Below are positions 47,071 through 64,000 of a stretch of 64,000 bases of DNA, piece by piece. The notes beneath the pieces are model-generated. The model worked only from the letters and a program-made list of their open reading frames with translations. It had not been told where the DNA came from and ran no database searches. Location of the stretch: assembly GCA_944363715.1 (NCBI GenBank), contig CALVUX010000003.1, positions 8,155 to 72,154 on the forward strand. The letters are read 5' to 3'. This DNA comes from an uncultured Bacilli bacterium (GTDB lineage: Bacteria; Bacillota_I; Bacilli_A; RF39; UBA660). The position numbers were made by a program, and so were the translations under genes. Each line of letters opens with the position of its first letter. Positions within the stretch are counted from its first letter, which is position 1.

Positions 47071-47091
47071 TATCAAATAAAGGAGTAAAAA

Positions 47092-47610: not shown

Positions 47611-47623
47611 AGGAGTAAGAATT

Positions 47624-48202: not shown

Positions 48203-48258
48203 ATAATAAATAATATTTTGAAACATAAACTTACTACTGGAAAGGTAGTGAGTTTTTT

Positions 48259-49515
48259 ATGTTTACAAGAGGAATAGATAAAAGAATGAAAATTATTCTT
48301 TTAATATTTAGTAGTATTTTATTAGTAATAGTCTTAAGAGTATTTTATGTTCAAGTAGTAGATTATAAGAAACTATCAAGTCTTGCTAGTGACCTTTGGA
48401 GTAGAAATTTACCTATTGAAGCATCAAGGGGTAGGATACTTGATAGAAATGGGGTAGTCCTTGCCGATAATATTACAACTACATCATTAGTCTTAATTCC
48501 TAATCAGATTAAGAATAAAAAAGAAGTAACAGAAAAACTAGCTGAGATTTTAGGAGTATCTTTTGATGAGATGAAAGAGCATGTTTATAAAGAAACATCT
48601 ATTGAAAGAGTTCATCCTGAAGGAAGAAGATTATCTTATGAAATAGCAGATAAAATAGAAGCTTTAAATTTTGATGGTGTTTATTTAGTTAAAGAGTCTA
48701 AAAGATATTATCCTTATGAAGAAATGTTATCCCATGTCTTAGGTTATGTTGGTATAGATAATCAAGGTTTATCTGGTATAGAGTTACAGTATGATGATTA
48801 TCTAACTGGAGAAAATGGAGCGATTAAGTATTTTAGTGATGCTAAGGGTAATAAACTTGAACTTACTGATTTATATATAGAACCACAGGATGGAATGAAT
48901 TTACAACTTACTATTGATATAAATATTCAAAAGTCAGTTGAAAGAGAGCTTGATAATGTTATCGATATGTTTAATCCTGATATGGCTCTTGCCGTTGTTA
49001 TGGATCCTAAAACAGGAGAGATACTTGCGATGAGTTCTAGACCTAATTTTGATCCTAATAATTACGGGAATTATTCTACTGAAGAATTATCTCGTAACCT
49101 TCCTATATGGGCTAGTTATGAACCTGGTTCTACTCAAAAGATAGTTACAACGGCAGCGGCAGTAGAAGAAGGAGTGGTTGATTTATTTAAAGATGAGTTT
49201 ACTGATACTGGTTCTGTTCAAGTAGATACTGCTAGAATTAAATGTTGGAAAGCAGGAGGACATGGCCATCAAACCTTCCTTCAAGTTTTACAAAACAGTT
49301 GTAACCCTGGGTTCGTTAAAATGGGACAGTTACTTGGAAAAGAAAGATTATTTCACTATTTAGATTTATTTGGTTTCGGCTCTAAGACAGGAATAGATTT
49401 AAATGGAGAAGGAGAAGGAATTATCTTTCCTCTTGAAAATGTTGGAAATATAGAACTTGCAACTACTGCTTTTGGACAAGGTATTAGTGTTACACCTATC
49501 CACCTTGTAGTCTAA
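48259..49515 (+). pseudogene. 3'-truncated class B penicillin-binding protein (SpoVD/FtsI-like)
   Basis: Anchor, dimerisation region, and motifs STQK and SCN are present. The ORF stops at ..AFGQGISVTPIHLVV with a double stop (taataa) before any KTG motif. About one third of a normal PBP is missing. Confidence 0.75.
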
Positions 49516-49675
49516 TAAATGATACCCTTATTATTGCTAGAGGATTAAATAGCAAATACACTAAAAAATATGATGTTGAGTATGAATATAATTGTTTTAT
49601 AGAAATATAGGTAAAATGCACAGAAATGTGTGTGTTTTCGTGGTATAATAGATAATTAAAGGAAGTGATAAATAC

Positions 49676-50980
49676 ATGAAAAAATATGAATTAGAATTAA
49701 CTGAAGATAATATTAGAAAAACAATTGAAAATAATATATTAGGAAGAAATAATAATTTAGTAATGCTAGGTAAAATGTTATTAAATCAAAATGAAAATAT
49801 TATGATTTCACTTGATGGAATATGGGGTTCTGGGAAAACATTTTTTATTAAGCAATTTGAATATTTAATAAAAAATATAGATGAATTTCCAGATAATAAA
49901 GTATTTGTTGAAAACGATAAAGAAATATTTAGAAAACTAAAAGACAATAATTTAGTTATTTATTATAATGCATGGCAAAATGATGATCATGAAGAACCTT
50001 TAGAATCGATTATGTATGCCATTTTAAATGAGTTTCCTAATCAAAAGAATCAATTAATTAGTTTTAAGGAATACAAAAAGATTGTTAAAGGATTTATATG
50101 GGATGTAATAAGGGTTGCTAGTCTTGAAAAAATTGATATGAAACATTTTGATGAGATGAAAAGTTATGAGGATATTACATCATCTATTATTACCATTGAA
50201 GAAAAGAAAGATTCATTTAATAAGTTAATTAATGAAATTTTAACTGATAATCAAAGATTAATTCTAATTGTTGATGAATTGGATAGATGTAAACCAACTT
50301 TTGCAGTTAAAATGTTAGAAACTTTAAAACATTTTTATGATAATGATAAAATTACAATTATTGTAGTAACTAATAATAGTGAATTGTCACATACTATTAA
50401 AAAGTTTTATGGTTATGAATTTGATGGTTGTGGTTATTTAAATAAATTTTATGATGCTGTAATTAGTCTAGAAATAAAAGATATAAAACAATATTTACAA
50501 AATCAATTGAATTTTTGTAATAGAACCTATCTTCCATATGATATGTCATATTTAATACTTAGATATTATAATTTTTTACTTAGAGAATGCAATAAATTTA
50601 TTACGATATATAATTTACTTAGCAGTTATATAGAAACTGAATCTGATTTCAATAGAAATGAAAATTATGTATTTTCTTGTATTTTATTACCATTAGCAAT
50701 AGCTTTAAAAATAAAACATATAGATTTATATCATCAATTTATGAATAATAAAGGAGAAAATATCATAAGAGAGTTCATTAAAGGCAGCGAACCACAAAAA
50801 GAAATGATTGATTGGATAAAGGAATTGCTTGGTAATCCAGAACAAGACTATATCGATATAATTATAGATTATTATAAACAAATATTTGATAAAACAAACT
50901 CTATTTACAGAATTAATTTTCATGATGCAATATCTTTATTAGGAACCAAACTTCAAATTGAAGATAATAAAAATAGTTAA
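49676..50980 (+). CDS. KAP-family P-loop NTPase
   Basis: Walker A LDGIWGSGKTFF. Walker B with the family-typical LILIVDELDRCKP. Confidence 0.75.
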   Translation: MKKYELELTEDNIRKTIENNILGRNNNLVMLGKMLLNQNENIMISLDGIWGSGKTFFIKQFEYLIKNIDEFPDNKVFVENDKEIFRKLKDNNLVIYYNAWQNDDHEEPLESIMYAILNEFPNQKNQLISFKEYKKIVKGFIWDVIRVASLEKIDMKHFDEMKSYEDITSSIITIEEKKDSFNKLINEILTDNQRLILIVDELDRCKPTFAVKMLETLKHFYDNDKITIIVVTNNSELSHTIKKFYGYEFDGCGYLNKFYDAVISLEIKDIKQYLQNQLNFCNRTYLPYDMSYLILRYYNFLLRECNKFITIYNLLSSYIETESDFNRNENYVFSCILLPLAIALKIKHIDLYHQFMNNKGENIIREFIKGSEPQKEMIDWIKELLGNPEQDYIDIIIDYYKQIFDKTNSIYRINFHDAISLLGTKLQIEDNKNS

Positions 50981-51129
50981 TCACTTGAGGTAATAATTGC
51001 ATATTACTTAAAAATAATATTTTAATTATAATTATGTATTTTAAGAATAAAATCATAGAAGAATTACCTAAATTTTTCTTTTTTATGATATACTATATTT
51101 AGTTATTTACTTTTGAGAGGGGTGTTTCC

Positions 51130-52017
51130 ATGAATAATTTTAACTTAAATTTATTTAAATATTTTTACTATGTTGTTTATTATAATGGTTTTACTAATGC
51201 ATCAAAAAATTTGAATATTGCCCAATCATCATTAAGTTATAATATAAAGCAATTAGAACTACAATTGGATAAAACATTGATTATTAGGGATAATAAGAAT
51301 TTTGAATTAACTGAAGATGGGTATAATTTATATGAAAATCTAAAGCCTGCTTTTAGTATTTTGAATCAAAATTTGGAACAATTTGATAATCAAAATACTG
51401 TGGAATTAACTATTGGAGTTAGACATTATTTATCAGATTTTATTTTCAAAGATTCTATAATTGAATTTATTAATACATATCCTAATATCCATATTAACAT
51501 AAAACTATATTCTAAATTGGATGTTAAAAAATTTGAAGAAGAATATGATGTGCTAATAGATTATGAAGATTATACTAATTTAATTAATACTAATAATAAA
51601 GGTTTATTATGTGTTTTAAATAATACTTTTGTTTCAGGAAAAGACCTATCTAAAAATTATGAATCAATTCAATCAATTAAAGAATTAGGAAATACAAGAT
51701 TAATATCAATGTGTCCAAATAAAAGAAATGGTAAATTTCAAAAAATGTGTTTTGAAAATGGTATTTTATTTGAAAATATTATATCAGTAAATGATAGTAT
51801 AATATCTAAAGAATTAGTAAAGAATGATTTAGGATTATGTTTTGTTAACAGAGAATTTTTTAAAGAAGAAATCGCAAATGGAGATGTAAAAGAAATTAAA
51901 GTAAAAGAACAATTGTTTAATGATAATGTATATATTGTTTATAAAAATGGTAAGAATATTAATAACATAAATAAATTCATTAGGATATTAAAAAAACAAT
52001 ATAAGGAGGAATTATAA
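51130..52017 (+). CDS. LysR-family transcriptional regulator
   Basis: N-terminal HTH FTNASKNLNIAQSSLSYNIKQLE. ~295 aa with a substrate-binding-type C-terminal part. Confidence 0.85.
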   Translation: MNNFNLNLFKYFYYVVYYNGFTNASKNLNIAQSSLSYNIKQLELQLDKTLIIRDNKNFELTEDGYNLYENLKPAFSILNQNLEQFDNQNTVELTIGVRHYLSDFIFKDSIIEFINTYPNIHINIKLYSKLDVKKFEEEYDVLIDYEDYTNLINTNNKGLLCVLNNTFVSGKDLSKNYESIQSIKELGNTRLISMCPNKRNGKFQKMCFENGILFENIISVNDSIISKELVKNDLGLCFVNREFFKEEIANGDVKEIKVKEQLFNDNVYIVYKNGKNINNINKFIRILKKQYKEEL

Positions 52018-52532
52018 TGAGTAAATGGGACTTATATGATGATAAATTTAATAATACTGGAATTGTTATAAATGATACTGATGAAATACCTGATGGTAAG
52101 TATCATTATTCTATAAATGCATGGATATTAAATTCAAAAAAACAATTATTATTAATACGAAATACTTTAAATTATAATATTCATTATCCTGGTTTTTGGA
52201 GTAGTATAAATGGAAATGTTTTAAGTGGTGAAAGTTCAACTGAAACGTGTATTAAAACTATTAATTCAAAAATAGGAATAAAAATCACAGATTCTGAAAT
52301 GAAAACTATCGATAAAAAATTACGTGATCCTTATCATTATATTTATGAAACCTATATTGTTAATAAAGATATTGATTTAAATGAAATATGTTTTATAGAT
52401 AATACAGCTGTTCAAGCTAAATGGATAGATTTAAAAGAATTATATAACATGATTGAAAACGGTGAAATTGCATGGGTGTTAATTCCAAGAATAGAAGAAT
52501 ATGTAATACCATTAATGAAAGAGACTAATTGA
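52017..52532 (+). CDS. Nudix-fold protein with degenerate Nudix box
   Basis: GNVLSGESSTETCIKTINSKIGI occupies the Nudix-box position, but RE is replaced by KT and EE by SK. Start overlaps the lysR stop. Confidence 0.5.
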   Translation: MSKWDLYDDKFNNTGIVINDTDEIPDGKYHYSINAWILNSKKQLLLIRNTLNYNIHYPGFWSSINGNVLSGESSTETCIKTINSKIGIKITDSEMKTIDKKLRDPYHYIYETYIVNKDIDLNEICFIDNTAVQAKWIDLKELYNMIENGEIAWVLIPRIEEYVIPLMKETN

Positions 52533-52550
52533 TTAAATTAGTCTTTTATT
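52522..52550 (+). terminator. Terminator after the lysR/Nudix-like pair
   Basis: agactaatt / aattagtct stem followed by tttatt. Confidence 0.55.
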
Positions 52551-52638
52551 ATTAGTTTTTTCTATATATTTTATCGAAAATTTGAATGATTAAATTACAC
52601 TTTACTATTATATAATATTCATAGGTAGGTGGGATAGT

Positions 52639-54159
52639 ATGCAAAATATGCCAGATTCATTGAAAAGAATAATAGAAATGAGTCCAAATTTGGAACACCG
52701 TGTCAGAGGATTACCAAATTTAGGTGAAAATTTAATTGATGGACAGTTTTCTATAGAAGTAAGTAAAATTTATGATGCCTTTGGATTATATGGAAATGAA
52801 TTATATTCACTTGAAAACGAAAGAATTAGAAATATTTCATCGAGATCACTTGGTGGTGGTAGTCCGATGAGAACATCTGCATTTCCTTTATGTAAAGAAG
52901 CTTTAATTAATATAATCAGCAGTGATGAACTTTCTGATTATCCTATGGCTGCAGGTGATGAAGAATCAAGAAAAATAATTTTAGAATATCTAAAGCAAGA
53001 AGGATTCAAAAGTAATAATGGTTTATCAGAAGATAATATTATTTTTACAGTATCTTCAACACATGCTTTTAATATTATTTCAAGTATTATTGCTAGGCCA
53101 CATGATGTAATATTAATGACAGGTCCTAATTATGGTCTATTTACTTTTGTTCCTGAACGAATTTCTGGTGCAACTGTTGAGATTTTGCCATTATCCGAAG
53201 AAGATAATTGGTATGTTAATCCACAAAAATTATCAAAAAGGATTGATGAAATTAATACAGATTTAAAAGCTAAATATGGTGAATCTTTGGAATACACACC
53301 AAAAGTTGTTGCATTTTTAAATGAAAATCCACATAATCCTTTAGGAAAAGTAATGAATGAGAATAATAAAAAAATACTTGAAGGTATTGGAAATGTGTGT
53401 TTATCAAAAGGTGTATTTGTTATAGATGATCTGATATATAGAGATTTAACATATGATAGAGATAATCTAGCAAAGCCAATGGCTTCTTATGAAAATTTTT
53501 TTGATAATACAATAACAATAACTGGTTTATCAAAATCTTATGGTTTAGCATCAATTAGATCTGGTATGGTAGTTGCAAATGAGATAATTATCATGGCAAT
53601 AAGAAATAAGATTTTTCAAACAATGGATTCCTCACCAGTATTGCAAGGTAGAGCGTTAGCTGGGGCATTTAATGCATCTGAAAGAAGAAAAAAAGAATAT
53701 GGTAACTACTTCAATCCTATTATTGAAGAATATAAATATCGTTTAGAATTATTGAAAGCATTAATTAATGGATTAGATTTTATTGATGATAGCAGTTTAA
53801 GAAAAAAAATAGAAAATGATATAAGAAATTATGCTTTTGGCAATAATATAAATCAAATATTAGATGGAATACCAAATGTTGACTTTGTAAATGGAACATT
53901 ACCAGATTCAGGATTTTTTGAAATGTTGGATTTTACTAAATTAAAGAATAAAGTTGCAGAAAATGGAAGAATAATTAGTAATGAAAAAGAATTACTTAAA
54001 TATATGTATGAACAAGAGAAAATTAAACTCATTTTAGGACAATCGATATCCTGGCCAAACGAAGAACAACTTATTGGAAGAGTTACAACAGCATTATCAA
54101 GGGAAGATTTAGTTGAACATTTTAGTGCAATGAATAAATGTTTAAGAAAGTTGAGATAA
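52639..54159 (+). CDS. PLP-dependent aminotransferase, class I/II fold
   Basis: NENPHNPLGKV (NPxNPxG block) and SKSYGLASIRSG (PLP-lysine block). 506 aa with an N-terminal extension. Confidence 0.85.
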   Translation: MQNMPDSLKRIIEMSPNLEHRVRGLPNLGENLIDGQFSIEVSKIYDAFGLYGNELYSLENERIRNISSRSLGGGSPMRTSAFPLCKEALINIISSDELSDYPMAAGDEESRKIILEYLKQEGFKSNNGLSEDNIIFTVSSTHAFNIISSIIARPHDVILMTGPNYGLFTFVPERISGATVEILPLSEEDNWYVNPQKLSKRIDEINTDLKAKYGESLEYTPKVVAFLNENPHNPLGKVMNENNKKILEGIGNVCLSKGVFVIDDLIYRDLTYDRDNLAKPMASYENFFDNTITITGLSKSYGLASIRSGMVVANEIIIMAIRNKIFQTMDSSPVLQGRALAGAFNASERRKKEYGNYFNPIIEEYKYRLELLKALINGLDFIDDSSLRKKIENDIRNYAFGNNINQILDGIPNVDFVNGTLPDSGFFEMLDFTKLKNKVAENGRIISNEKELLKYMYEQEKIKLILGQSISWPNEEQLIGRVTTALSREDLVEHFSAMNKCLRKLR

Positions 54160-54161
54160 TT

Positions 54162-55058
54162 ATGAAAAAGGTAGGAATTGTATCTTGTGATAAGTGGATA
54201 GACAAATTGGAAGAAGATAATAACTTAAAAAATGCATTAATAAATCTAGGAATAGATGCTAAAATTATATCTTGGCAACAACCATTAGAAGAAAAGTATG
54301 ATTTATTAGTTTTAAAATCGGTATGGGGATATCAAAATTTTTATAAAGAATTTAAAAACTGGCTATTATATGTTAAGAATAATAATATTCCATTAGTTAA
54401 TGATGTTGATATGGTTTTAAATAATATTATGAAGGATATTCAATTTAATATTTTAGAAAAAAATAATGTTGATTTCATAGATACAATATTTTTAGATCAA
54501 TCCAAATTATTAAATAAGAACATATTTGAAATGTTGGATGATAAATCATATGTTTTTAAACCAACAATCTCAGGCAGTGGTGAAAATACTTATCTAGTAA
54601 CAAATTCTAATGATAAATCTGTACCAAATACAATCCAAAAAGAAGATATAGTAAAAATATATAATAAAATGTTGGATGATAATAGTTATTGTAAAATAAT
54701 GATTCAACCATTTATTTCAGAGATAAGTAATGGGGAATATTCATGTATCTTTATAGACGGGAAACTAACTCATACAATGTTAAGATTTCCAAATATATTT
54801 CATGAAAAAAGGAGACCTTATTTAGTTGATAATGTTCCAGATAGCATTATACAACTTGCGAGAGTTGTGGAGAGAATCAAAGAATTTAATAATTATTTAT
54901 ATATGCGAGTTGATATGGTTTTAGTTAATAGTAAGGCAAAAATAATGGAAGTTGAGTTAGCTGATCCAGATCTTTTAACAAAATATATTGATGATTCAAA
55001 TGTTAAGTCAAATGTTATTAAGACTTTTGCAAAAAAAATCGAAAGGAGAGTTAGATAA
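54162..55058 (+). CDS. ATP-grasp domain protein (RimK/ligase-like)
   Basis: YVFKPTISGSGENTYLV and MRVDMVLVNSKAKIMEVELADPDL resemble the ATP-grasp KP..GsgG and R.D....g...hEhN..P blocks. Start is 3 nt after the upstream stop. Confidence 0.55.
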   Translation: MKKVGIVSCDKWIDKLEEDNNLKNALINLGIDAKIISWQQPLEEKYDLLVLKSVWGYQNFYKEFKNWLLYVKNNNIPLVNDVDMVLNNIMKDIQFNILEKNNVDFIDTIFLDQSKLLNKNIFEMLDDKSYVFKPTISGSGENTYLVTNSNDKSVPNTIQKEDIVKIYNKMLDDNSYCKIMIQPFISEISNGEYSCIFIDGKLTHTMLRFPNIFHEKRRPYLVDNVPDSIIQLARVVERIKEFNNYLYMRVDMVLVNSKAKIMEVELADPDLLTKYIDDSNVKSNVIKTFAKKIERRVR

Positions 55059-55059
55059 G

Positions 55060-55773
55060 ATGAAAACATACAAAATAGTTTTAACTGGTGGACCTTGTGG
55101 TGGTAAGACAGATTCTATAGACTTTTTATCAAAAAAACTAATTGAGCAAGACTATTCGGTAAAGATAGTTAATGAAACTGCTAATTCTCTTTTGAAATTA
55201 GGATATATGCCAAGCGTAAATATATCTACATTTGATTTTCAAAATTTATTGTTTAAAATTCAGTTTCTAAATGAATATATGTCTGAAGGGAAGTCAAATA
55301 TTTTATTATGTGATAGAGGTCTTTTTGATGGCAAGGTATATATAGATGAAAGTGATTTTCAAAAAATATTAGATTTAAATAAAGTTAAAGAAAAAGAAAT
55401 CTCTTCAACCTATGATGGCGCTCTATATTTTAGAAGTATCTCATACGAATACCCTAATGAATTTTCAAAAAAAAGAATTTATGAAAGCCCAGAAGTTGGT
55501 AGAATTAGGGATGAACGTTGTAAAGAAATCTGGATAGATAAAATAGTTCCTTGTATTTATGATAATTTGGATGGTTTTGAAAATAAACAAAAGATAATAT
55601 ATTTAACTTTAAAAAAACAATTAGAATATTTAAAGCAAATCAAATCTTATAAATTATCCGATTATTATGATATTGAATACTTTAAATATATATATAACGG
55701 AATTAATGATATTTTAGCAAAAAATGATATATCTGATGATATAAAGATAAAAACAAGGGGGTTAATAAGATGA
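55060..55773 (+). CDS. AAA_28/NadR-kinase-like P-loop ATPase
   Basis: KIVLTGGPCGGKT Walker A, followed by VNETANSLL, as in AAA_28-type proteins. RBS aaaggagag. Confidence 0.55.
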   Translation: MKTYKIVLTGGPCGGKTDSIDFLSKKLIEQDYSVKIVNETANSLLKLGYMPSVNISTFDFQNLLFKIQFLNEYMSEGKSNILLCDRGLFDGKVYIDESDFQKILDLNKVKEKEISSTYDGALYFRSISYEYPNEFSKKRIYESPEVGRIRDERCKEIWIDKIVPCIYDNLDGFENKQKIIYLTLKKQLEYLKQIKSYKLSDYYDIEYFKYIYNGINDILAKNDISDDIKIKTRGLIR

Positions 55774-57026
55774 CAACATTATTATATTTTGAAGAGTACG
55801 AATCAAATTTATCTCATGAATTATTAAAACGAAAAGATATTAATCCAATAATTATAAGAACAAATAAAAATATGAAGTTTTTTAACGAAAGTTATCTTGA
55901 ATCGACTAAAAATGTTTTAAATTATGTTATTGATTATTATAATGATATAGATAACGAGGTTTTAAAATTTAAAAATTGGTTGAAGGATAATGATATAAAA
56001 ATTGACTATTTTTTAAATGATTCAGAGTATTACTTAGAATTTTCTAATAGATTTGCAAGGAAATTAGGATTATATGCTTTAACAGATGAGCAAATATGTT
56101 GGGTAAGAGATAAAGTTGATATGAAAAAAAGATTTCGAGAAATAGGTTTAGATAGAGTTGATTTTAGAGAAATTAATAGTAAAGACGAACTTAAAAAATT
56201 TTTTGTAGATAATGGAAGCAAGAAAATTATTTTTAAACCTAGAAGAGGTATGAATAGTATTGAAACTTATATGATAAATTCATTAGAAGATATAGATGGC
56301 TTAGAAATAGATATTATACCCGGAAAATATATGGCTGAAGATTTCTGTTACGATCATGAATGGTCTATAGAAAGTTTAGTACAAGATGGTAAAGTATTAG
56401 ATTCGTATGTTACATATATTCCAAATCCAACTATATGGGCATCCATTTCAAACGATTTAAATTGTCATATGACTGTTCCTAAAATACCATCATATTTTAA
56501 ATTTGTTCCTAAAGAGTTTATTCAACAAATAGTATCTGGTATGAATTTAAAAGATGGAGCAATGACTATAGAAGTTTTTATAAGCAATGATGGAAATATT
56601 AAGGCAAGCGAACTTGGATGGAGATTACCGGGGTGTCAAGCTACTTTAAATCATAGTTATTCATATGGAATTGATATTTATAACTTACTATTAGACATTG
56701 CAATTCATAAAAAAGTTAATTTAAAGTATCAAGATAAAATTGTTAGTGTAGGCGATTTATATCTACCAAATAAGGAAGGAATTATTGAACAAATAACACC
56801 ATTAGAAGAATTACTGAAAATGGATGGTGTCATTGATGGTGAATTATTTACAAAAATTGGTGAATATCAAAAGAAAAGAAGAGTAGGAAATGATGCATCT
56901 GGCTGGGTTCAAGTTTTAGGTGAAAATGAGTTTGATACATTACAAAAAATGCAAAAAATATATGATATCTTTGAAATAGAAGTTTCAAATGATATGGGAG
57001 GTAAAAAATATGTTAAAAAAATATAA
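55770..57026 (+). CDS. ATP-grasp domain protein (carboxylate-amine / L-amino-acid ligase-like)
   Basis: 418 aa. KIIFKPRRGMNSIETYMI and MTIEVFISNDGNIKASELGWRLPG blocks. ATGA overlap with the upstream gene. Confidence 0.65.
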   Translation: MTTLLYFEEYESNLSHELLKRKDINPIIIRTNKNMKFFNESYLESTKNVLNYVIDYYNDIDNEVLKFKNWLKDNDIKIDYFLNDSEYYLEFSNRFARKLGLYALTDEQICWVRDKVDMKKRFREIGLDRVDFREINSKDELKKFFVDNGSKKIIFKPRRGMNSIETYMINSLEDIDGLEIDIIPGKYMAEDFCYDHEWSIESLVQDGKVLDSYVTYIPNPTIWASISNDLNCHMTVPKIPSYFKFVPKEFIQQIVSGMNLKDGAMTIEVFISNDGNIKASELGWRLPGCQATLNHSYSYGIDIYNLLLDIAIHKKVNLKYQDKIVSVGDLYLPNKEGIIEQITPLEELLKMDGVIDGELFTKIGEYQKKRRVGNDASGWVQVLGENEFDTLQKMQKIYDIFEIEVSNDMGGKKYVKKI

Positions 57027-57789
57027 ACAATACTTGTTGATTTTATTATTTACTATATTGATGACGGCTGGTTGTTCAAACAAGTTAAATATTATTAATA
57101 CTAAAGATGATTTAAATAATAAAACTATTGGTGTATATACAGGTTCAGAGTATGATACTATTGCTAAGGTTAATATAATAAATGCTAATATTTTATATTA
57201 TAATAGTTATAGTGATCAAATATCTGCATTAAAATCTGGTAAAATAGATGGCTTTTTAACAGATGAACCATTAGCCAAAGAAATAATTAAAGAACATGGT
57301 GATTTAAAAATATTAGATGAAAAACTTACTGGGGATAGTTATGCATTTGCGATTAATCCTTCAAAACAAGATTTGCAAAATGAGATTAATAGAGTTTTAA
57401 GTGAAATGAAACAAAATGGTAAATTACAAGAATTAGAAGAAAAATGGATGGGGAATGATGAAAGTAAAAAAGAACTAGATAATTATAATTATGATGATTC
57501 AAAAGGAACTATTAAATTTGCTACTGTATCAGGTTCTGCTCCATTTGCATATATGAAAAACAATAAAATTGTTGGATATGATATTGATGTAATAAATTAT
57601 ATATGTAAAGAATTAGGTTATAAGCTAGAAGTTATAGAAATGTCATTTGATGGAATAATTCCAGCATTAAAATCTGGTAAAGTTGATGTTTCTGGATGTT
57701 CTATTATTGTAACTGAAGAAAGAAAAAAATCTGTTTTATTTTCTGAACCTGATTATACTGGTGGAATAGTTGTTATAACTAGGAGATAG
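57010..57789 (+). CDS. Amino-acid ABC transporter substrate-binding lipoprotein, circularly permuted
   Basis: Lipobox LMTAGCS. Residues ~45-155 align with the C-terminal half of GlnH-type binding proteins (..KTIGVYTGS..GKIDGFLTD..YAFAINP..LQELEEKWMG). Residues ~172-266 align with the N-terminal half (..APFAYM..GYDIDVINYICKELGYKLEV..FDGIIPALKSGKVDV..TEERKKSVLFSEP). Confidence 0.8.
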   Translation: MLKKYKQYLLILLFTILMTAGCSNKLNIINTKDDLNNKTIGVYTGSEYDTIAKVNIINANILYYNSYSDQISALKSGKIDGFLTDEPLAKEIIKEHGDLKILDEKLTGDSYAFAINPSKQDLQNEINRVLSEMKQNGKLQELEEKWMGNDESKKELDNYNYDDSKGTIKFATVSGSAPFAYMKNNKIVGYDIDVINYICKELGYKLEVIEMSFDGIIPALKSGKVDVSGCSIIVTEERKKSVLFSEPDYTGGIVVITRR

Positions 57790-57791
57790 AA

Positions 57792-58568
57792 ATGAAGAAT
57801 CAAAATAAATGGATAAAAGCCATAATTATTTTATTTATATTGATATTAGTTTTAATTTATAATAAAGAAAATATAATAAAACTTTTTAGTAGCATATATA
57901 GTAGTTTTATAAGAACGGTTATTGATGAAAAAAGATATATTCTGTTTTTGAACGGATTAAAATCAACATTATTAATTTCATTTTTATCAATTATTATTGG
58001 TACTTTATTTGGATTTATTCTATTCTTGTTACACAGATCTAAAATTAAGATTTTAAAAATAATATCATTAGTGTTAGTAAGATTTTTGCAAGGTGTTCCA
58101 GTAACTGTTTTACTATTAACATTCTATTTTGGAATTTTTGGGTCAATAAATATTGAACCCATTATAGTAGCAGTTATAGCATTTTCAATATATTTTTCTG
58201 CATATGTTTGTGAAATTATAAAAGGTGCTTTTTCCTCAATAAATAGGACTCAAATTGATTCGGCGTATGCACTAGGTTTTACAAAAATTCAAACATTTAA
58301 ATACATAGTTTTTCCTCAAGTGCTTTCATATGTTATACCTGTTTATAAAAATGAAAGTGTTTCATTAATAAAATCTACTTCTATAGCGGGTTATATATCT
58401 ATAATGGAATTAACTAAAGCAAGTGATATTATTAGAAATAGAACATATGAAGCTTTTTTTCCGTTGATATTTACTGCGCTAATATATTTCATAATTTGTT
58501 ATGTTTTTTGTAAACTATTGGATTTAATATATAAAAAAATAAATCCTAGGATGGTGAAAAAATCATGA
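57792..58568 (+). CDS. Amino-acid ABC transporter permease
   Basis: Polar amino-acid permease pattern (..IIKGAFSSINRTQIDSAYALGFTK..FKYIVFPQ..). Multiple TM helices. Confidence 0.85.
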   Translation: MKNQNKWIKAIIILFILILVLIYNKENIIKLFSSIYSSFIRTVIDEKRYILFLNGLKSTLLISFLSIIIGTLFGFILFLLHRSKIKILKIISLVLVRFLQGVPVTVLLLTFYFGIFGSINIEPIIVAVIAFSIYFSAYVCEIIKGAFSSINRTQIDSAYALGFTKIQTFKYIVFPQVLSYVIPVYKNESVSLIKSTSIAGYISIMELTKASDIIRNRTYEAFFPLIFTALIYFIICYVFCKLLDLIYKKINPRMVKKS

Positions 58569-59227
58569 AAAAAGAATTTATATTAGAATTTGAAAATGTT
58601 ACAAAATATTATGGTAATGATCTAGTATTTAGTAATGTTAATTTAAAAATTAAAAAAGGCGATGTAATTGCTTTGACTGGTAAAAGTGGATGTGGTAAAA
58701 GTACGTTATTGAAATGCATAAATCGCTTAGAACATATCAATGATGGAAAAATAAAATTTAAAGGTATCGATATTTCTGAAATATCAATGGTTCAATTAAG
58801 GCAAAAAATTGGAATGGTTTTTCAAGATTATAATTTATTTGAACACTTAACTGTGTTAGATAATTTAATAATCGGATTAATTAAAATAAAAAAAATTTCT
58901 CGAGATGAGAGTATTCATAAAGCATTAAATATGTTAAAGAAATTAGATTTAATTGATAAAAAAGATAATTATCCAAATGAATTATCAGGTGGTCAGAAGC
59001 AAAGAGTAGCCATTGCTAGAACATTATTAATGAAACCAGATATTATATTGTTAGATGAACCAACAAGCGCATTAGATAAAGAAATGAAAGATAGTGTATT
59101 GAATTTAATTAAAAAAATTGTAGAAGAAAATATGACATTAATTATAGTTTCACATGAGGAAGAATTTATAAAAAATGTTTCAGATCAAATATATGTATTA
59201 AAAAACAATTGTGTGGAGATGAAATAG
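58565..59227 (+). CDS. Amino-acid ABC transporter ATP-binding protein
   Basis: Walker A GKSGCGKST, signature LSGGQKQRVAIAR, Walker B ILLDEPTSALD. Confidence 0.95.
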   Translation: MKKEFILEFENVTKYYGNDLVFSNVNLKIKKGDVIALTGKSGCGKSTLLKCINRLEHINDGKIKFKGIDISEISMVQLRQKIGMVFQDYNLFEHLTVLDNLIIGLIKIKKISRDESIHKALNMLKKLDLIDKKDNYPNELSGGQKQRVAIARTLLMKPDIILLDEPTSALDKEMKDSVLNLIKKIVEENMTLIIVSHEEEFIKNVSDQIYVLKNNCVEMK

Positions 59228-59228
59228 A

Positions 59229-60167
59229 ATGAATGAATTAGAATTATATAAAGGTAATCGTATTACATTAATGGCGTGTTCAAGTTGCAATGCAAAATGT
59301 AGTGATTGCTACATAGGATATACAGGTAATAGAACACCAGATGATTTGTATAACATAGCATATTTATTAATGAATGATGGAAAACATGTTAGAATAGATG
59401 GTGCTGAGGTATTAACTAATTTAGATTACCTAAAAACATTAAAATTAGTTGGTCAAAATTGGATAATGACAAATGGATTTCGAATTTATAGTGAACCAGA
59501 TATTATCGATTTATTAAGGGACAATAATATAGATACTGTTTACATGTCATATCATTATGGTATTCAAGAAGATATAAATTCTATTTCTTTGACTATTGTT
59601 GAAGATGTTATTAAATTACTTAATAAAAATAATTTCAATATATATTTAAATTGTACTTTAACAAATAGAAATTACAAGGATATTAAATATATCGCTGAAA
59701 AAACATATCAACTTGGTGCGAAAGGAGTTGGATTCAATAAAATATTTCAACAAGGAAAGGCAAAAAATATTGAAAATTTAGATTTAACTAAAGAACAGTC
59801 AAAAGAGTTTTTTGAAGATTTAAATTATCTTAGAAATCATCATGATAAAAATGAATTTTATATTACTAGAGGAGGTTCATTAGGACACGATACATTTAAA
59901 GGAAAGGATAATTTTAGATGTAATGCTGGGAATAATCATGTGATGATAGCTCCAGATTCTAAAGTTTATGGTTGTAATGCAATATGTAGGCCTGGATATG
60001 AAATAGGAGAGTTTATCAATAATAAAGTTTACTTATATAAAAAATTTTATCATGATGAGTCAGTTTGTTTAGCAGAGTTACTTGGTTATTTAAATGAGGA
60101 TAATATGGATAATTTGACATATGACAAATATCCGGTTTTAGTAAAAAAATATAGTAATAAAAAGTAG
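59229..60167 (+). CDS. Radical SAM enzyme with C-terminal Cys-rich (SPASM/twitch-like) region
   Basis: CNAKCSDCY (CxxxCxxC) near the N-terminus. C-terminal RCNAGNNHVMIAPDSKVYGCNAIC cluster. Confidence 0.85.
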   Translation: MNELELYKGNRITLMACSSCNAKCSDCYIGYTGNRTPDDLYNIAYLLMNDGKHVRIDGAEVLTNLDYLKTLKLVGQNWIMTNGFRIYSEPDIIDLLRDNNIDTVYMSYHYGIQEDINSISLTIVEDVIKLLNKNNFNIYLNCTLTNRNYKDIKYIAEKTYQLGAKGVGFNKIFQQGKAKNIENLDLTKEQSKEFFEDLNYLRNHHDKNEFYITRGGSLGHDTFKGKDNFRCNAGNNHVMIAPDSKVYGCNAICRPGYEIGEFINNKVYLYKKFYHDESVCLAELLGYLNEDNMDNLTYDKYPVLVKKYSNKK

Positions 60168-60178
60168 GTGAAATATTT

Positions 60179-61318
60179 ATGTTAAGCATAGAAGATTATA
60201 ATAGTAAAGAAATTGATGGAAGAATTAAATTGTCTAATAGATTCATTAGAGCGTTTAGACCTAAATTATTTGAAAATGGTGGTTTTCCAACTACTGTACA
60301 AAAAGAAGAAGAGTTAGTTAGATATATTGATAGTATGCATGCATATAGTTTTGAAAGTCATTATAATGATTTGTGTGGTGGTATAACTGAGAAAGAATTT
60401 TCTTTGTTGAAAAAAACTACAAACGATATACATGATATGACAACTAGAAAATATAATGCTGATTTTCTTGTGAAGGCACCTATGATTGCTTCTATATGTG
60501 AGAAACGAATAATTGAAGCAGCATTAGGCAGTACTGATGAAAAAAGAATATTTGAGATTGGTGGAGGATCAGGTACTTTAGGATGTCTTTTGTTAGAAGA
60601 TAATATAAAGTATTCTGCAACAGATGTAACTCAAGCATTCTATTTAATTCAAAATAGGTTATTTGATTATATTACTAATGGTGATATTAATGAATTAGTT
60701 AATCAGGATTTAAATATTAATTCAAAATGTATTCATTTACCATATTGGAAATTATGGGAGATGAGAGAAAATCCAATAGATATTGATTTAGTAGTTTCTA
60801 ATCATGCACTTTTAGAAATGAGTCCAAATTCTTTGAGATTTTATTTAAATTTTTGTAAAAATGCAATGGGAAATAGTAAAGATGGATTATTTGTTTTTCA
60901 AGGTGGAGGCTGGCGAATTGATCAAACTCTAATAGATTTAATAGAATTATTTGATGAATATGGTTTTTATTTAAAATATTTTGATCATAGTAAAGAAATA
61001 GCTGGATTTTCTTTGAAAGAAGGTTCTGTAAAAAAAGAAGTACTTTTAGCATTAAAAGAGTTATTGATTAATGGTGTTGATAAAGAAAAAATATATGCTC
61101 TAGGTTCTCATATTAATTCAAGATTAAATTCAAGTCAAATTTTCTATTGTGGTGATGTAGGAGATAGAATGAATTCTGCTTTTCACAAGATTTCAACTGA
61201 AAATAAAGTTGATATAGAATGTGTAAAAAAATATTATGATAGTTTTTATGCAAAAAATGATTCTCCGGATGATGAATTTGCAGAATATATATCGTGTAAG
61301 AAAAAAATAATGAGGTGA
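60179..61318 (+). CDS. Class I SAM-dependent methyltransferase-like protein
   Basis: IFEIGGGSGTLGCLLLED (motif I), YSATDV (acidic post-I), DLVVSNHALLEM (motif II/III region). Confidence 0.55.
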   Translation: MLSIEDYNSKEIDGRIKLSNRFIRAFRPKLFENGGFPTTVQKEEELVRYIDSMHAYSFESHYNDLCGGITEKEFSLLKKTTNDIHDMTTRKYNADFLVKAPMIASICEKRIIEAALGSTDEKRIFEIGGGSGTLGCLLLEDNIKYSATDVTQAFYLIQNRLFDYITNGDINELVNQDLNINSKCIHLPYWKLWEMRENPIDIDLVVSNHALLEMSPNSLRFYLNFCKNAMGNSKDGLFVFQGGGWRIDQTLIDLIELFDEYGFYLKYFDHSKEIAGFSLKEGSVKKEVLLALKELLINGVDKEKIYALGSHINSRLNSSQIFYCGDVGDRMNSAFHKISTENKVDIECVKKYYDSFYAKNDSPDDEFAEYISCKKKIMR

Positions 61319-61965
61319 TTAATGTGAAGACACTTATATTTATTGGCGGTGCAACGGCATGTGGTAAAAGTACATTGGCAAATAGTTTGAATGAAAAAAT
61401 TCCAAATAGTATTAAATATAGAAGACATCAAGGTTTCTTTGATATTGCTTCGAAAAAGAGTATTCCTAAAAATGAAATTTATAGATGTATAACCTCTGAG
61501 CAAGTAGATGATTGGTTTGTAAATATATGTGATAATTCAGAAGTCGTTATTTCAGATGTACATTATGCTATTCAAATGAGTAGAAATGGCATAGATTCTA
61601 ATCACAATGTTGACATACACCAAAATTATGTTCCAACTATTTCAATTGATTTATTAAATAATATTTCATCGAAAAATATTCAAATAGTTGCAGTATTCCT
61701 TACATGTCCTCCTCAACAATGTTTGAATAGAGCAATTTCTAGATATAATGAATCTAAAAAAGATTTTCGAAATATTTCTATTGAAGATGCTACTATTGAA
61801 AATTTTTCAGAAGAGAAGGAATGGAATAATATTTTATTGACAGGTCTTGCAGATGGATTAAAATTGAATTCTGAGAAATTTTCAGTTGAACAATTAACTG
61901 ATCAATGCTTAGAACATTTAAAAAAATATGAAGAAATTACACTGAAAAAAATAAAAAAATTATAA
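61315..61965 (+). CDS. P-loop kinase-like protein
   Basis: LIFIGGATACGKSTLANSL Walker A. Size and layout resemble small-molecule/nucleoside kinases. The true start may be the in-frame GTG at 61324. Confidence 0.5.
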   Translation: MINVKTLIFIGGATACGKSTLANSLNEKIPNSIKYRRHQGFFDIASKKSIPKNEIYRCITSEQVDDWFVNICDNSEVVISDVHYAIQMSRNGIDSNHNVDIHQNYVPTISIDLLNNISSKNIQIVAVFLTCPPQQCLNRAISRYNESKKDFRNISIEDATIENFSEEKEWNNILLTGLADGLKLNSEKFSVEQLTDQCLEHLKKYEEITLKKIKKL

Positions 61966-61998
61966 ATCATGGTATAATTAATACGAGGTGGTCGTAAA

Positions 61999-62517
61999 AT
62001 GAAAGAAACAATATATAATTATGATTATTTAAAGGATGAAGATATAACTGAAGTTGTTATAAGAACTAAAGCATTAATAATTAATAGTAAAAACATAATT
62101 TTAGGAAATGAGAATAATATATATCAATTTCCAGGAGGCCATTTAGAGGAAAATGAAACTTTTGAAGAATGCTTAAAGCGTGAAGTTTTAGAAGAAACTG
62201 GTATAGAGATTGATGATAATGAAATAAAAAGACCTTTTATGAAAGTTACTTATTTAAACAAAGATTGGCCATCAATTGGGAAAAATAGAAAATCTGAAAT
62301 ATATTATTATTTAATTGAAACTAGTAAAAATCCAAATATGAGTAAGGTAAAATATACTGAACATGAAAAACTAGGTAATTTTAAAATTGAATCTATTCCT
62401 TTGAGCGAATCAATAAGTGTTATTGAAAATAACATTTCAAAAAATGAAAAAAATAAAGTTATAGCACCAGATATGATAATGGCCATAACAGAGTATTTAC
62501 ATCAGAGTGAAGATTAA
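61999..62517 (+). CDS. NUDIX hydrolase
   Basis: Complete Nudix box GHLEENETFEECLKREVLEETGI. Confidence 0.85.
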   Translation: MKETIYNYDYLKDEDITEVVIRTKALIINSKNIILGNENNIYQFPGGHLEENETFEECLKREVLEETGIEIDDNEIKRPFMKVTYLNKDWPSIGKNRKSEIYYYLIETSKNPNMSKVKYTEHEKLGNFKIESIPLSESISVIENNISKNEKNKVIAPDMIMAITEYLHQSED

Positions 62518-62518
62518 A

Positions 62519-63055
62519 ATGAAATTTGAAGAGAAAATATATAATACTGATAATTTAAGTATTAAAGATATTGATGAAAAAACAACACGTGCAAGAGCCA
62601 TTATTGTTAATTCAAATAAAGAAGTATTGATGTGTTATTCGAATGGTAGTAATCATTATGAGTTTCCGGGAGATCATTTAGAATTTGGTGAAAATTTAAT
62701 TGAAGGTTTAAAACGAGAATTATTAGAAGAAACGGGAATAGAAATAGAAAAAGAAAATGCTACACCTTTTTATTCTATAAAGTACTATTGTAAAAATTAT
62801 CATGGTACTGGTAAAAATAGATTAGTTGAAATATATTTTTTTTTGGTTTATACAGATTTATCCTATGATGTATTAAAAATAAAACTAGATGAAAATGAAA
62901 TATATAAAAATTATGAATGTAGATATATTGGTATTGAAAAATTAAAGAACATATTATTTGAAAATAAACAAACTACTAGAGAAACTAATAGTTCATTGGA
63001 CGATACAATTTTAGTATACGAAGAGTTTTTATCTAGAAATAATTATGGGGGATAG
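62519..63055 (+). CDS. NUDIX hydrolase (paralogue of the preceding gene)
   Basis: FPGDHLEFGENLIEGLKRELLEETGI: Nudix box with Asp replacing the first Gly. Same overall layout as the 61999 product. Confidence 0.8.
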   Translation: MKFEEKIYNTDNLSIKDIDEKTTRARAIIVNSNKEVLMCYSNGSNHYEFPGDHLEFGENLIEGLKRELLEETGIEIEKENATPFYSIKYYCKNYHGTGKNRLVEIYFFLVYTDLSYDVLKIKLDENEIYKNYECRYIGIEKLKNILFENKQTTRETNSSLDDTILVYEEFLSRNNYGG

Positions 63056-63135
63056 TCTGAAAATATAAAAAAACTTATTTTATAGAATTAGATAAAAAAG
63101 GGCAGACTTTCCCTTACCCCATAAAAGGTCAAAAA

Positions 63136-64000
63136 TTAAATAGTTAAATTATTGGCATTCTGATTAATTAAATTAATTAATTCTTCCAATGTAAGGCCCA
63201 AAGATAATAATCGTTTAAGTGATTGATTGAAATTATTTTTGGTATATTTAATTCTATCTTCAACAGGTGTTTCAACAGAAGCTAAATCAACAGGATTCCA
63301 AACTTCACCAGTTTCAAACATATTATAGATAGCAACTAAAATTTTTCTAGCAATTGCAATAATCGCACGTTTCTTACCGCGACGTTTAGAAAGTTTCTCA
63401 TATTTCTTTGCATAGTAAGTGTTAGTTTTATCTTTAACAGCATTGTGAGTAATTTCAACAAGATATGGTTTAAGATAAACACCGGCACGAGAGATTTTAA
63501 CAGATTTTTTCTTGCCAGCAGATTCATTACAACCAGGAGCAAGCCCAGCCCAAGAAGTAAGGCGGTAATGAGATTTAAATTGAGAAACATCATTACTAAT
63601 TTCTGATAAAACACCAATTGCTGAATTTCTATCAATACCAGGAATTGTACAAAGTAAGTCGATGTAAGATTCGTAAGGTGTAACTAAAGAATCAATTATA
63701 TAATTTAATTTACTTATTTGATTATTAAGATAATCAATATGTTCTTTGATAATATTAATTCTTAGTTTTTGTTTGTAAGTGAATTGTATGCCATCAATAG
63801 AAGATAAAATATCTTCGTCAGAAGATTTGCATTTTTTACTAATACAATTTATAATATCCTCATCTGAGAAATTATCATTATTCATAATGATATTAATAAT
63901 AGATTGTGAAGATTTACCAAAGATATCGGAAAAAACCATATCTAATTTGCAATTACCAACAGTAAGAGCATTAGTAAATCTATTTTTCTCAGATGATTTG
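63136..64000 (-). mobile_element. IS110-family transposase gene, 5' part runs off the window
   Basis: C-terminal Transposase_20-type block LLCTIPGIDRNSAIGVLSEI...LTSWAGLAPGCNESAGKKKS..ISRAGVYLKPYLVE. The - strand frame stays open from 63939 to 64000 (..NALTVGNCKLDMVFSDIFG), so the listed Met is internal. Confidence 0.85.

Follow-up and report, generated by a model that had tools for sequence, protein, structure and literature searches.

A mobile operon of gut Bacilli with two ATP-grasp ligases, an amino-acid importer, and phosphate-handling enzymes: a possible route to a small aminoacylated nucleoside- or sugar-type metabolite

The window analysed in this work is a 64,000-nt stretch of DNA from an uncultured bacterium of the Bacilli (RF39; GenBank assembly GCA_944363715.1, contig CALVUX010000003.1), and all coordinates count from its first letter. 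At 52639-63055 it holds a block of twelve co-directional genes which is part of an operon carried by an element inserted in a penicillin-binding protein (PBP) gene, and for which we tentatively propose a role in making a small aminoacylated metabolite. All twelve open reading frames (ORFs) that a first-pass annotation of this DNA had listed were found on the plus strand in the same places, and every junction that it described was reproduced exactly, namely, gaps of 2, 1, 2, 1, and 1 nt at 54159/54162, 55058/55060, 57789/57792, 59227/59229, and 62517/62519, overlaps of 4, 17, 4, and 4 nt at 55770, 57010, 58565, and 61315, and longer gaps of 11 nt at 60167/60179 and 33 nt at 61965/61999. The widest intergenic gap in the cluster is 106 nt. 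A purine-rich run resembling a Shine-Dalgarno sequence precedes most of the twelve starts, and no terminator-like site was found on the plus strand inside the block. The domain classes that had been named, an aminotransferase, two ATP-grasp proteins, an AAA_28 protein, an importer, a radical S-adenosylmethionine (SAM) enzyme, a methyltransferase, a P-loop protein, and two Nudix proteins, were borne out by Pfam, NCBIfam, and AlphaFold2 (AF2) models. The claim of a single twelve-gene unit holds for the tight co-directional coupling but not for the gene count, since the unit also takes in a LysR gene and the gene of a further Nudix-fold protein, NudA, and in relatives the last gene of the block is followed by that of a HAD phosphatase. 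The GC content is about 25% across the whole region, and because DNA of this composition gave 127 promoter sites against 135 expected the promoter scan was uninformative. A scan of 48000-64000 with Rfam found no RNA family and no riboswitch.

The cluster is headed by a LysR-type regulator (51130-52017, plus strand; Pfam HTH_1 and LysR_substrate). That the operon has a LysR regulator of its own had been claimed before and agrees with the conservation of this gene at the cluster head in relatives, where it takes the same position in 20 loci of one relative listing. The next gene, nudA (52017-52532, plus strand), had gone unmentioned; its first base is the final one of the LysR stop codon, and it encodes a Nudix-fold protein (Pfam NUDIX, 29 bits) whose Nudix box is degenerate, with RE changed to KT and EE to SK, as it is in all Bacilli orthologues. 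Despite the degenerate box the gene is under purifying selection (ratio of nonsynonymous to synonymous substitution rates, dN/dS, 0.13), and NudA probably binds a ligand without catalysis, as a partner of either the aminotransferase or the regulator. The aminotransferase (52639-54159, plus strand; Aminotran_1_2, 91 bits) is a pyridoxal phosphate (PLP) enzyme of class I fold and, with 506 aa and extensions at both the N- and the C-terminus, the largest protein of the block. Its profile matches aspartate, prephenate, and aromatic aminotransferases, and its invariant residues N233, D264, Y267, S298-K299, R307, and R481 would fit the class I catalytic set, including the arginine that binds the alpha-carboxylate.

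The aminotransferase and NudA also have counterparts in a sister cluster family of Clostridia-like metagenome-assembled genomes (MAGs), represented by L042 and L067/68 (related loci are cited by such numbers) and seen in 81 collection blocks, which lies on an element with MobA/MobL and a serine recombinase. There the gene order is NTP_transferase, a Nudix::aminotransferase fusion, a PIG-L deacetylase, an aminotransferase, a DcsG-like ligase, an L-amino-acid ligase (LAL)-like protein, a B12-radical SAM enzyme, a radical SAM enzyme, and an M24 peptidase, and the family has no importer. In the fusion (L042:1436-3460; L067:5818-7812) the Nudix domain is a homologue of NudA (E 8e-16) whose box, REVKEELGV, is intact, and the fusion ties the Nudix-fold protein functionally to the aminotransferase. 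Given the substrates on which PIG-L deacetylases generally act, the presence of NTP_transferase and PIG-L suggests that the scaffold in this sister family is NDP-activated and resembles an N-acetyl-amino sugar.

Two ATP-grasp ligases are encoded downstream of the aminotransferase. Ligase 1 (54162-55058, plus strand) is a distant, full-length homologue of the D-cycloserine synthetase DcsG that falls within the Pfam family DcsG_N (PF27100); it scored 63.7 bits against the NCBIfam DcsG equivalog NF058666, for which the cut-off is 360, and thus is not an equivalog, and its profile matched the DcsG structure, PDB 6JIL, with 75 bits. Unlike in the DcsG system, no dcsA-E genes are present here, and the DcsG_N family is broad and occurs in unrelated contexts elsewhere. 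Between cluster variants ligase 1 is the most divergent core gene (44-80% identity). Ligase 2 (55770-57026, plus strand) is probably of the LAL type, with scores below the cut-off in Pfam for both LAL_C2 (25.7 bits, cut-off 29.4) and ATP-grasp_4 (22.9 bits, cut-off 27), and its profile gave 70 bits against the L-amino acid ligase 4WD3, which we take to be RizA, and 49 bits against BacD.

Next to the ligases lies a polar-amino-acid ABC importer (57010-59227, plus strand), made up of a lipoprotein binding protein (57010-57789), a permease (57792-58568), and an ATPase (58565-59227). The three domains of a PAAT-type importer (Pfam SBP_bac_3, BPD_transp_1, and ABC_tran, with NCBIfam) and the motifs that contact an alpha-amino acid are all present; what is atypical is that the binding protein is circularly permuted with its C-terminal half first. 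Its residues 160-258 correspond to residues 4-103 of AncQR, a canonical Gln/Arg binder, and its residues 29-148 to AncQR residues 109-232, and this permutation is kept in all cluster relatives. The permutation may have arisen by tandem duplication, since in tandem GlnP the C-terminal half of the first domain and the N-terminal half of the second align contiguously to the binding protein. It is closest to binders of Gln, Arg, and Lys and retains the TEER and TD motifs, which hold the alpha-carboxylate and alpha-amino groups of the ligand.

The AAA_28 (NadR-kinase-like) P-loop protein (55060-55773, plus strand; Pfam AAA_28, 49 bits) is restricted to the variant found in the window, with orthologues only in L010, L055-58, and L064-66, and has no sequence relative in the PDB. 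The P-loop kinase-like protein assigned to AAA_18 by Pfam (61315-61965, plus strand) has weak similarity to dNK, guanylate kinase, and nicotinamide-riboside kinase; its PDB matches are marginal, and the Tmk-like kinase of other variants is not its orthologue. Nud1 (61999-62517) and Nud2 (62519-63055), both on the plus strand, are paralogous Nudix hydrolases (Pfam NUDIX, 48 and 41 bits) that are 38% identical to each other (E 8e-31). The box of Nud1 is canonical and in that of Nud2 the first Gly is replaced by Asp with the REx2EE residues intact, and the nearest structures are generic MutT/NUDT1-type hydrolases of NTP or NDP-X compounds. With the Nudix profiles, as with those of the APH kinases found in other variants, the matches in the PDB were generic only. 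Past Nud2 an IS110-family transposase gene (63136-64000, minus strand; Transposase_20) is cut by the window end; the full gene, on the minus strand in L062 and L064, codes for 428 aa. In L055-58, the closest relatives free of this insertion sequence (IS), a HAD gene starts 1 nt past Nud2. Therefore the operon has a thirteenth gene, and IS110 is a secondary insertion between Nud2 and this gene that uncouples it here. The gene codes for a Cof-type HAD phosphatase of 392 aa and lies beyond the window, past IS110, as seen in contigs that are 99.8% identical to the window (L061-63 and L064-66, called siblings here).

The radical SAM enzyme (59229-60167, plus strand) was examined through its conserved cysteines and by AF2 and Foldseek. 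It has a CX3CX2C motif (C20, C24, and C27) and four more invariant cysteines, C17, C231, C249, and C280, a set that agrees with the SPASM/twitch class to which it had been assigned. By their number these cysteines would bind one auxiliary cluster, as in twitch-like enzymes, and not form the seven-cysteine SPASM motif, so that the twitch half of that assignment stands and the full SPASM half does not. The AF2 model (pLDDT 90.5) has as its nearest folds SkfB, SuiB, DesII, viperins, anSME, and BlsE, with TM scores of at most 0.66, and the best sequence match in the PDB is SkfB with 38 bits. With the twitch/SPASM enzymes SkfB, anSME, DesII, and BlsE it shares the N-terminal CX3CX2C, the partial TIM barrel, and the C-terminal cysteines for one auxiliary cluster, but it has no family-level match to them. 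The family is tiny, with 57 sequences among 5.8 billion.

This gene is intact in the window and is separated from L055-58, which lack it and are of the commonest type of relative, by a clean indel of about 990 bp. In L064-66, which are three independent contigs, a change of G to T at window position 59601 turns codon 125 of the radical SAM gene into a stop, and in L052/53, independently, a paralogous radical SAM gene and an adjacent APH kinase gene are riddled with stops and the other genes are open. The radical SAM enzyme is thus an optional tailoring enzyme. It had been counted among the enzymes that define the logic of the pathway; the gene is indeed there, but a core role does not fit its repeated loss while other genes stay intact. 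For the same reason we rejected it as a dehydrogenase that feeds the aminotransferase in the manner of BtrN/BtrS or Pur10/Pur4, since it is lost while the aminotransferase is under selection. Distant relatives of the radical SAM enzyme (30-41% identity; L006/L007, L030; L036-L038, L028, and L050) are found in two further settings, each of them conserved. One places them between a 357-aa paralogue of a class II aminoacyl-tRNA synthetase and a 488-aa aminoacyl-tRNA synthetase, together with an S66 (MccF-like) peptidase and a methyltransferase; the other has the gene order LysR, HAD, a Tmk-like kinase, an MBL-fold protein, a U32 peptidase, a methyltransferase, and a second radical SAM enzyme.

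The gene that follows encodes a class I SAM-dependent methyltransferase of 379 aa (60179-61318, plus strand). It scored 41.3 bits against TIGR04371 (NanM, putative sugar O-methyltransferase), just short of the cut-off of 44, and 16 of its 42 family members match that model. It has the GxGxG motif and a Rossmann fold (AF2 pLDDT 90.7) with accessory regions that match nothing; in Foldseek the Rossmann core alone was matched, with TM scores of at most 0.37 and TDP-sugar C-methyltransferases at the top, and among PDB sequences there was no significant match. Because these confident models gave neighbours at the superfamily level only, no substrate can be assigned to either the radical SAM enzyme or the methyltransferase.

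The first-pass annotation had called the operon an orphan, which is right for its function and wrong for its distribution, since it has relatives in many gut metagenomes. The order LysR, pseudo-Nudix, aminotransferase, DcsG-like ligase, LAL-type ligase, and ABC importer is kept in at least 30 loci, which without exception come from metagenomes or MAGs and for the most part are labelled Bacilli or 'Tenericutes'. The same core, namely, LysR, NudA, the aminotransferase, the two ligases, and the binding protein, permease, and ATPase, was found in the same order in 23 loci of one relative listing, and a scan of one genome per species gave 47 loci, nearly all in MAGs, about two-thirds of them labelled Bacilli, 'Tenericutes', or Bacillales. 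For the DcsG-like ligase 487 relatives were found, and the allele class of the window is present in 126 collection blocks. Scattering of the genes in other genomes had been set beforehand as the outcome that would count against the operon; elsewhere they are syntenic instead.

Downstream of the core the cluster is modular. Every variant has Nudix and Cof-type HAD genes at its 3' end and at least two kinases. In the common variant, represented by L003, the 3' module reads APH kinase, radical SAM, APH kinase, Tmk/dNK-like kinase, Nudix, and HAD; in L016 and L059 a PNP_UDP_1 phosphorylase and a 188-aa protein replace the Tmk-like kinase; L013 has an NTP-transferase-like gene and a second Nudix gene, with GNAT and MFS genes upstream; and L002 has both radical SAM subtypes. 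Thus one and the same position is taken across variants by a Tmk/dNK-like kinase, a PNP_UDP_1 phosphorylase, or an NTP-transferase-like gene. In the window type AAA_28 is added and the module reads radical SAM, methyltransferase, P-loop kinase, Nudix, Nudix, and HAD. All 13 genes common to the window and its 96%-identical relative L055 have dN/dS values of 0.07-0.34, and this, with a gene order shared by dozens of independent loci, is more than chance would give. The LysR, NudA, aminotransferase, and transporter of the window are 77-93% identical to those of L016 and its LAL-type ligase is closer to those of L003/L010; close relatives with the same chromosomal flank have different 3' modules; and the element is 89-96% identical between hosts in which the flanking PBP DNA is only 66-71% identical. 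These mosaic identities, the swapped modules, and the contrast between element and flank indicate horizontal movement and recombination. In the siblings L061-63 a deletion of 10.6 kb (window 49805-60446) runs from inside a KAP gene upstream of LysR to about codon 90 of the methyltransferase gene and so removes most of the KAP gene, LysR, NudA, nine operon genes, and the first ~90 codons of the methyltransferase, leaving the P-loop kinase, Nud1, Nud2, IS110, and HAD.

The operon is the cargo of a large-serine-recombinase element of about 15 kb that splits a class B PBP gene. The first-pass annotation had placed it in an accessory segment bounded by a truncated PBP gene and IS110. The accessory nature of the segment is confirmed, but IS110 is not its boundary, and the supposed truncated gene (48259-49515, plus strand; Pfam PBP_dimer and the first 168 of 299 transpeptidase positions) is the left part of a gene cut in two by the element, whose left junction lies at about 49505-49525. 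The siblings reveal the sequence past the window end, where Nud2 is followed by IS110, HAD, three small ORFs, a serine recombinase, the PBP right half, mraY, and ftsW/spoVE. The recombinase has 553 aa and Resolvase and Recombinase domains (with a Zn ribbon), and its 3' end lies within the in-frame region of the PBP right half (L016 and L061). In L016, from a different species, the layout is the same (PBP-N, cluster, recombinase, PBP-C, mraY, and ftsW); the two PBP parts are at L016:400-1668 and 16521-17126 and at L061:6238-7494 and 16934-17500. The left-half ORF ends in ...AFGQGISVTPIH followed by LVV and the stop codon (GISVTPIH, then LVV and stop), and the right half, which follows the recombinase in L016 and L061 and comprises transpeptidase positions 186-298 and one PASTA domain, opens with TTIQQITAISAVINGG when its frame is extended beyond the called start. 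Intact PBPs of other species in metagenomes read ...FGQGISVTPIQQ(I/V)TAVS..VNGG, i.e., GQGISVTPIQQ(I/V)TAVS..VNGG. The split point is thus within the motif GQGISVTPIQQ, and the two halves jointly give an intact reading frame. The undivided attB site of the element is expected to read …GTTACACCTATYCAACAAATAACAGC…, a putative site. In the JGI metagenomes no intact PBP of the same species, that is, no empty site, was found, and the anchor alone matched only the intact PBPs of other species.

The element has no phage genes. Among the viral contigs searched none encodes a relative of the LAL-type ligase, and a megablast of the block against the PLSDB plasmids gave no match. With its single PASTA domain and its place upstream of mraY and ftsW/spoVE, the host PBP is compatible with SpoVD, although these features do not prove it to be so. 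Elements that intervene in genes of spore formers are known, such as skin in sigK, SPbeta in spsM, and gin in gerE, the last of which is not a prophage (PMC5595907, PMC4191935). The present element resembles them in that a gene is split in mid-domain, a serine recombinase lies at one junction, phage structural genes are missing (as in gin), and the hosts have sporulation genes, and differs from them in its target, a class B PBP gene, and in its cargo, a 13-kb metabolic operon. In the literature searched there was no report of a PBP or spoVD gene as the target of such an element.

No characterised pathway was matched by this gene set, as the first-pass annotation had said: scores against NCBIfam equivalogs were far under the cut-offs, and a literature search for the enzyme combination gave no match. 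Its further suggestion, a resemblance to the logic of peptidyl-nucleoside and dipeptide antimetabolites with cryptic phosphorylation, is supported. Based on these findings we propose that the operon, under LysR control, may direct the synthesis of a small aminoacylated metabolite derived from a nucleoside or sugar phosphate, with cryptic phosphorylation, as cargo of the mobile element; this is the reading we prefer, at somewhat less than an even chance. The chemical steps are drawn from family-level homology, synteny, and one gene fusion. The ABC importer, whose binding protein retains the contacts to the alpha-carboxylate and alpha-amino groups, would supply a polar alpha-amino acid as a building block. 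Two kinases, here the AAA_28 protein and the P-loop kinase and in other variants two APH-type kinases with or without the Tmk-like kinase, would lift a nucleoside- or sugar-like scaffold to the phosphate or diphosphate (nucleotide-linked) level, and the optional radical SAM enzyme of the twitch type and the methyltransferase would tailor it. The aminotransferase-fold PLP enzyme, partnered by NudA, would install or process an amino group, and the DcsG-like and LAL-type ATP-grasp enzymes would then join the imported amino acid to the scaffold by one or two amide bonds formed via acyl-phosphates. Nud1 and Nud2 would cut the diphosphate and HAD would take off the last phosphate. The released product would be a small aminoacylated metabolite of the amino-sugar or nucleoside type, most likely an antimetabolite used in competition, and the swappable 3' module would yield chemical variants of it. 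The Nudix and HAD genes at the 3' end, the kinases, the one position taken in turn by a Tmk/dNK-like kinase, a phosphorylase, or an NTP-transferase-like gene, the NTP_transferase and PIG-L of the sister family, and a methyltransferase nearest to sugar models and folds would give the pathway a nucleotide or sugar-phosphate flavour. The uncoupling of the HAD gene by IS110 may impair the pathway in the strain of the window.

Since the defining homologues of the known systems are absent, the pathway may work like the puromycin and pseudouridimycin pathways but is not a member of either type. In the puromycin logic of the pur, ata, cst, and ADG clusters, oxidation by the Pur10 dehydrogenase is followed by transamination by the Pur4 aminotransferase, then by the Pur7 Nudix protein, the Pur3 phosphatase, and aminoacyl ligation by Pur6, and methyltransferases take part as well (PMC11641026). 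The likeness would lie in a nucleotide-level scaffold that receives its amino group from a PLP enzyme, in the removal of phosphates by a Nudix protein and then a monophosphatase, in the attachment of an amino acid, and in tailoring by methyltransferase; one variant here (L013) also has GNAT and MFS genes. On the other hand, no gene of the element has an oxidoreductase domain in Pfam, so there is no NAD dehydrogenase of the Pur10 type, and there is no synthetase of the Pur6 type of ~84 kDa, Pur6 being compared by its description (PMC11641026) and the largest protein here being the 506-aa aminotransferase. The aminotransferase is here of class I, amide formation would be by ATP-grasp enzymes, kinases and an importer are dedicated to the cluster, and the host is an anaerobic gut Firmicute. 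Pseudouridimycin is made with the PumH kinase, the PumI oxidase, the PumG aminotransferase, and the PumK/PumM ATP-grasp ligases (PMC10127198). Here too a small cluster holds two ATP-grasp ligases, an aminotransferase, and a P-loop kinase, and the intermediates are proposed to be phosphorylated; unlike it, the present cluster has no pseudouridine synthase (PumJ), flavin oxidase (PumI), N-hydroxylase, or amidinotransferase, and PumG is an aminotransferase of class III. With polyoxin and nikkomycin the common feature would be cryptic phosphorylation. The enolpyruvyl transferase NikO/PolA of those pathways has no counterpart here, in line with its absence as noted in the first-pass annotation, since no protein with the EPSP-synthase fold is encoded among the element genes, and the radical SAM enzyme is optional and unrelated in role to PolH/NikJ. 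The LAL dipeptide antibiotics such as bacilysin resemble the present case in that ligase 2 matches their ligases and is accompanied by an aminotransferase, a part played by BacF in the making of bacilysin, but bacABCG and a phosphoenolpyruvate (PEP) mutase are missing here and the DcsG-like ligase, kinases, Nudix proteins, HAD, and importer are extra.

Several points weigh against the proposal of an aminoacylated nucleoside- or sugar-type product. Most variants, including that of the window, have no exporter or obvious self-resistance gene, and their only transporter is an importer. An aminotransferase of the class I, alpha-amino-acid type with a presumed alpha-carboxylate arginine would fit an amino-acid substrate better than a ketone of a sugar or nucleoside, and the radical SAM enzyme, being dispensable, cannot be the oxidant that feeds it. 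The assignments of the kinases, Nudix proteins, HAD, and methyltransferase are at the family level only, the window variant lacks an enzyme for the formation of a glycosidic or nucleoside bond or of the scaffold, and sibling strains are decaying, as the nonsense allele and the 10.6-kb deletion indicate. An importer in place of an exporter, an amino-acid-type aminotransferase, and the lack of a scaffold-forming enzyme keep alive two rival products, a dipeptide and an intracellular metabolite.

That the operon of the window strain is a decaying remnant, no longer productive, has an appreciable though minor chance of being right. HAD is cut off from the operon by IS110, and siblings that are 99.8% identical carry the radical SAM nonsense mutation or the large deletion. 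Against this, the twelve ORFs, LysR, and NudA are all intact in the window, dN/dS is low against the 96%-identical relative, and the HAD gene past the IS is still intact in the siblings. The product could also be a di- or tripeptide antimetabolite built of amino acids only, of the bacilysin, rhizocticin, or tabtoxin type, in which the aminotransferase would make a non-proteinogenic alpha-amino acid from a keto acid, the ATP-grasp pair would build a peptide with the imported amino acid, and the kinases, Nudix proteins, and HAD would serve self-protection or activation by adding phosphate to the product and taking it off again, with no nucleotide-like scaffold involved. The alpha-carboxylate arginine of the aminotransferase, the match of the LAL-type ligase to the RizA-like and BacD structures, a binding protein that would be specific for alpha-amino acids, and a six-gene core that is wholly amino-acid enzymology next to a variable phosphate-handling module all agree with this. 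Yet no genes for an unusual keto-acid skeleton (prephenate pathway, PEP mutase, or similar) were found in the Pfam and NCBIfam scans, the Nudix-aminotransferase fusion with NTP_transferase and PIG-L points to nucleotide-linked sugar chemistry, and the nucleoside phosphorylase and the Tmk/dNK-like kinases are left unexplained, and we consider a peptide of this kind rather unlikely.

It is unlikely, too, that the operon serves the cell's own use, by taking up an amino acid or an amino-acid conjugate and turning it into an intracellular compound resembling a thiol, cofactor, solute, or envelope precursor, or by salvaging it, with no antibiotic secreted. An importer without an exporter and a regulator of the LysR type, as metabolic operons typically have, are in favour of such a role, and the PIG-L gene of the sister family and two insertion sites in a division and cell-wall gene cluster would suit it as well. 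Bacillithiol and mycothiol synthesis, with a deacetylase and an ATP-dependent amino-acid ligase, follows a similar logic. But mobile carriage, patchy spread, swapped 3' modules, and deletions and pseudogenes at the level of strains are unexpected for a housekeeping metabolite, and the two ATP-consuming ligases speak against catabolism. An anti-phage system, in which a viperin-like radical SAM enzyme and kinases would make chain-terminating nucleotides, is very improbable, even though the radical SAM enzyme has viperins among its neighbours in structure, the KAP NTPase adjoins the cluster, and AbiE genes are close by in the siblings. When PADLOC was applied to ten proteins (KAP, NudA, and eight operon enzymes, with Nud2 and the transporter left out), the operon enzymes gave no match or marginal ones (E 1e-4 to 1e-10); moreover, the auxiliary-cluster cysteines are absent from viperins, the radical SAM enzyme is dispensable, and the ligases, aminotransferase, and importer would have no role. 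A cluster for a ribosomally synthesised and post-translationally modified peptide (RiPP), in which the radical SAM and ATP-grasp enzymes would mature a ribosomal precursor, was rejected as scarcely credible, for although the nearest radical SAM structures and models include the RiPP maturases SkfB, SuiB, AlbA, and PapB and ATP-grasp enzymes occur in graspetide pathways, a precursor gene would not fit even into the widest gap, of 106 nt, the radical SAM motif begins as early as residue 20 and hence leaves no N-terminal peptide-recognition domain, the ATP-grasp enzymes match small-molecule ligases, and the radical SAM enzyme is optional.

A small ATP-grasp biosynthetic operon on a mobile element is of a kind already known. 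New here are the enzyme set and its modular variants, the partnership with a pseudo-Nudix protein, a receptor with a permuted fold, and a carrier that splits a PBP gene, each in itself of a known kind. If the product is a new antimetabolite of the aminoacylated nucleoside or sugar type, it would be a natural-product family from uncultured gut commensals that are poorly mined, and the natural variants, with swapped 3' modules and with or without the radical SAM enzyme, can be compared directly. Three oddities at the protein level are of value in themselves: the pairing of a pseudo-Nudix protein with an aminotransferase, a natural circular permutant of a binding protein, and a small, distinct family of twitch-type radical SAM enzymes. 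With this carrier, whose cargo is a metabolic operon, a class B PBP gene is added to the host genes in which serine-recombinase intervening elements are seated. A bolder reading combines the ATP-grasp pair, the Nudix-partnered aminotransferase, the interchangeable kinase, radical SAM, and phosphorylase modules, the permuted receptor, and the SpoVD-like PBP site: uncultured gut Bacilli would carry a family of modular cassettes, exchanged horizontally, for a new, oxygen-independent class of aminoacylated amino-sugar or nucleoside antimetabolites whose excision, and possibly product release, is tied to sporulation. We regard this as doubtful.

Some neighbouring genes lie outside the proposed pathway. 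The KAP-family P-loop NTPase between the left junction and LysR (49676-50980, plus strand; Pfam KAP_NTPase, 110 bits; PADLOC PDC-S20, 154 bits) is a candidate single-gene defence protein. It occupies a variable slot inside the left junction, which holds a protein kinase in L055 (a 434-aa Ser/Thr-kinase-like protein) and a DDE transposase in L059 and is empty in L016/L060. A second variable region adjoins the element between an MFS gene and the PBP gene: in the window (45401-48202) it has four genes, including those for a Cna_B-domain protein and a zinc-ribbon membrane protein, and in the near-identical siblings (L061:4228-6165) it has AbiEi/AbiEii and a 152-aa Nudix protein. In L003-L005 (10001-10927 and flanks) the cluster lies between ftsQ/divIB and ftsA-ftsZ-spoIIGA-sigE, again in a division and cell-wall gene cluster, at another position and with no recombinase in view, and a 388-aa gene without assignment is found there downstream of the HAD gene. 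Outside the element, a stand-alone Nudix gene of 205 aa (40837-41454) lies upstream of a P-type ATPase gene.

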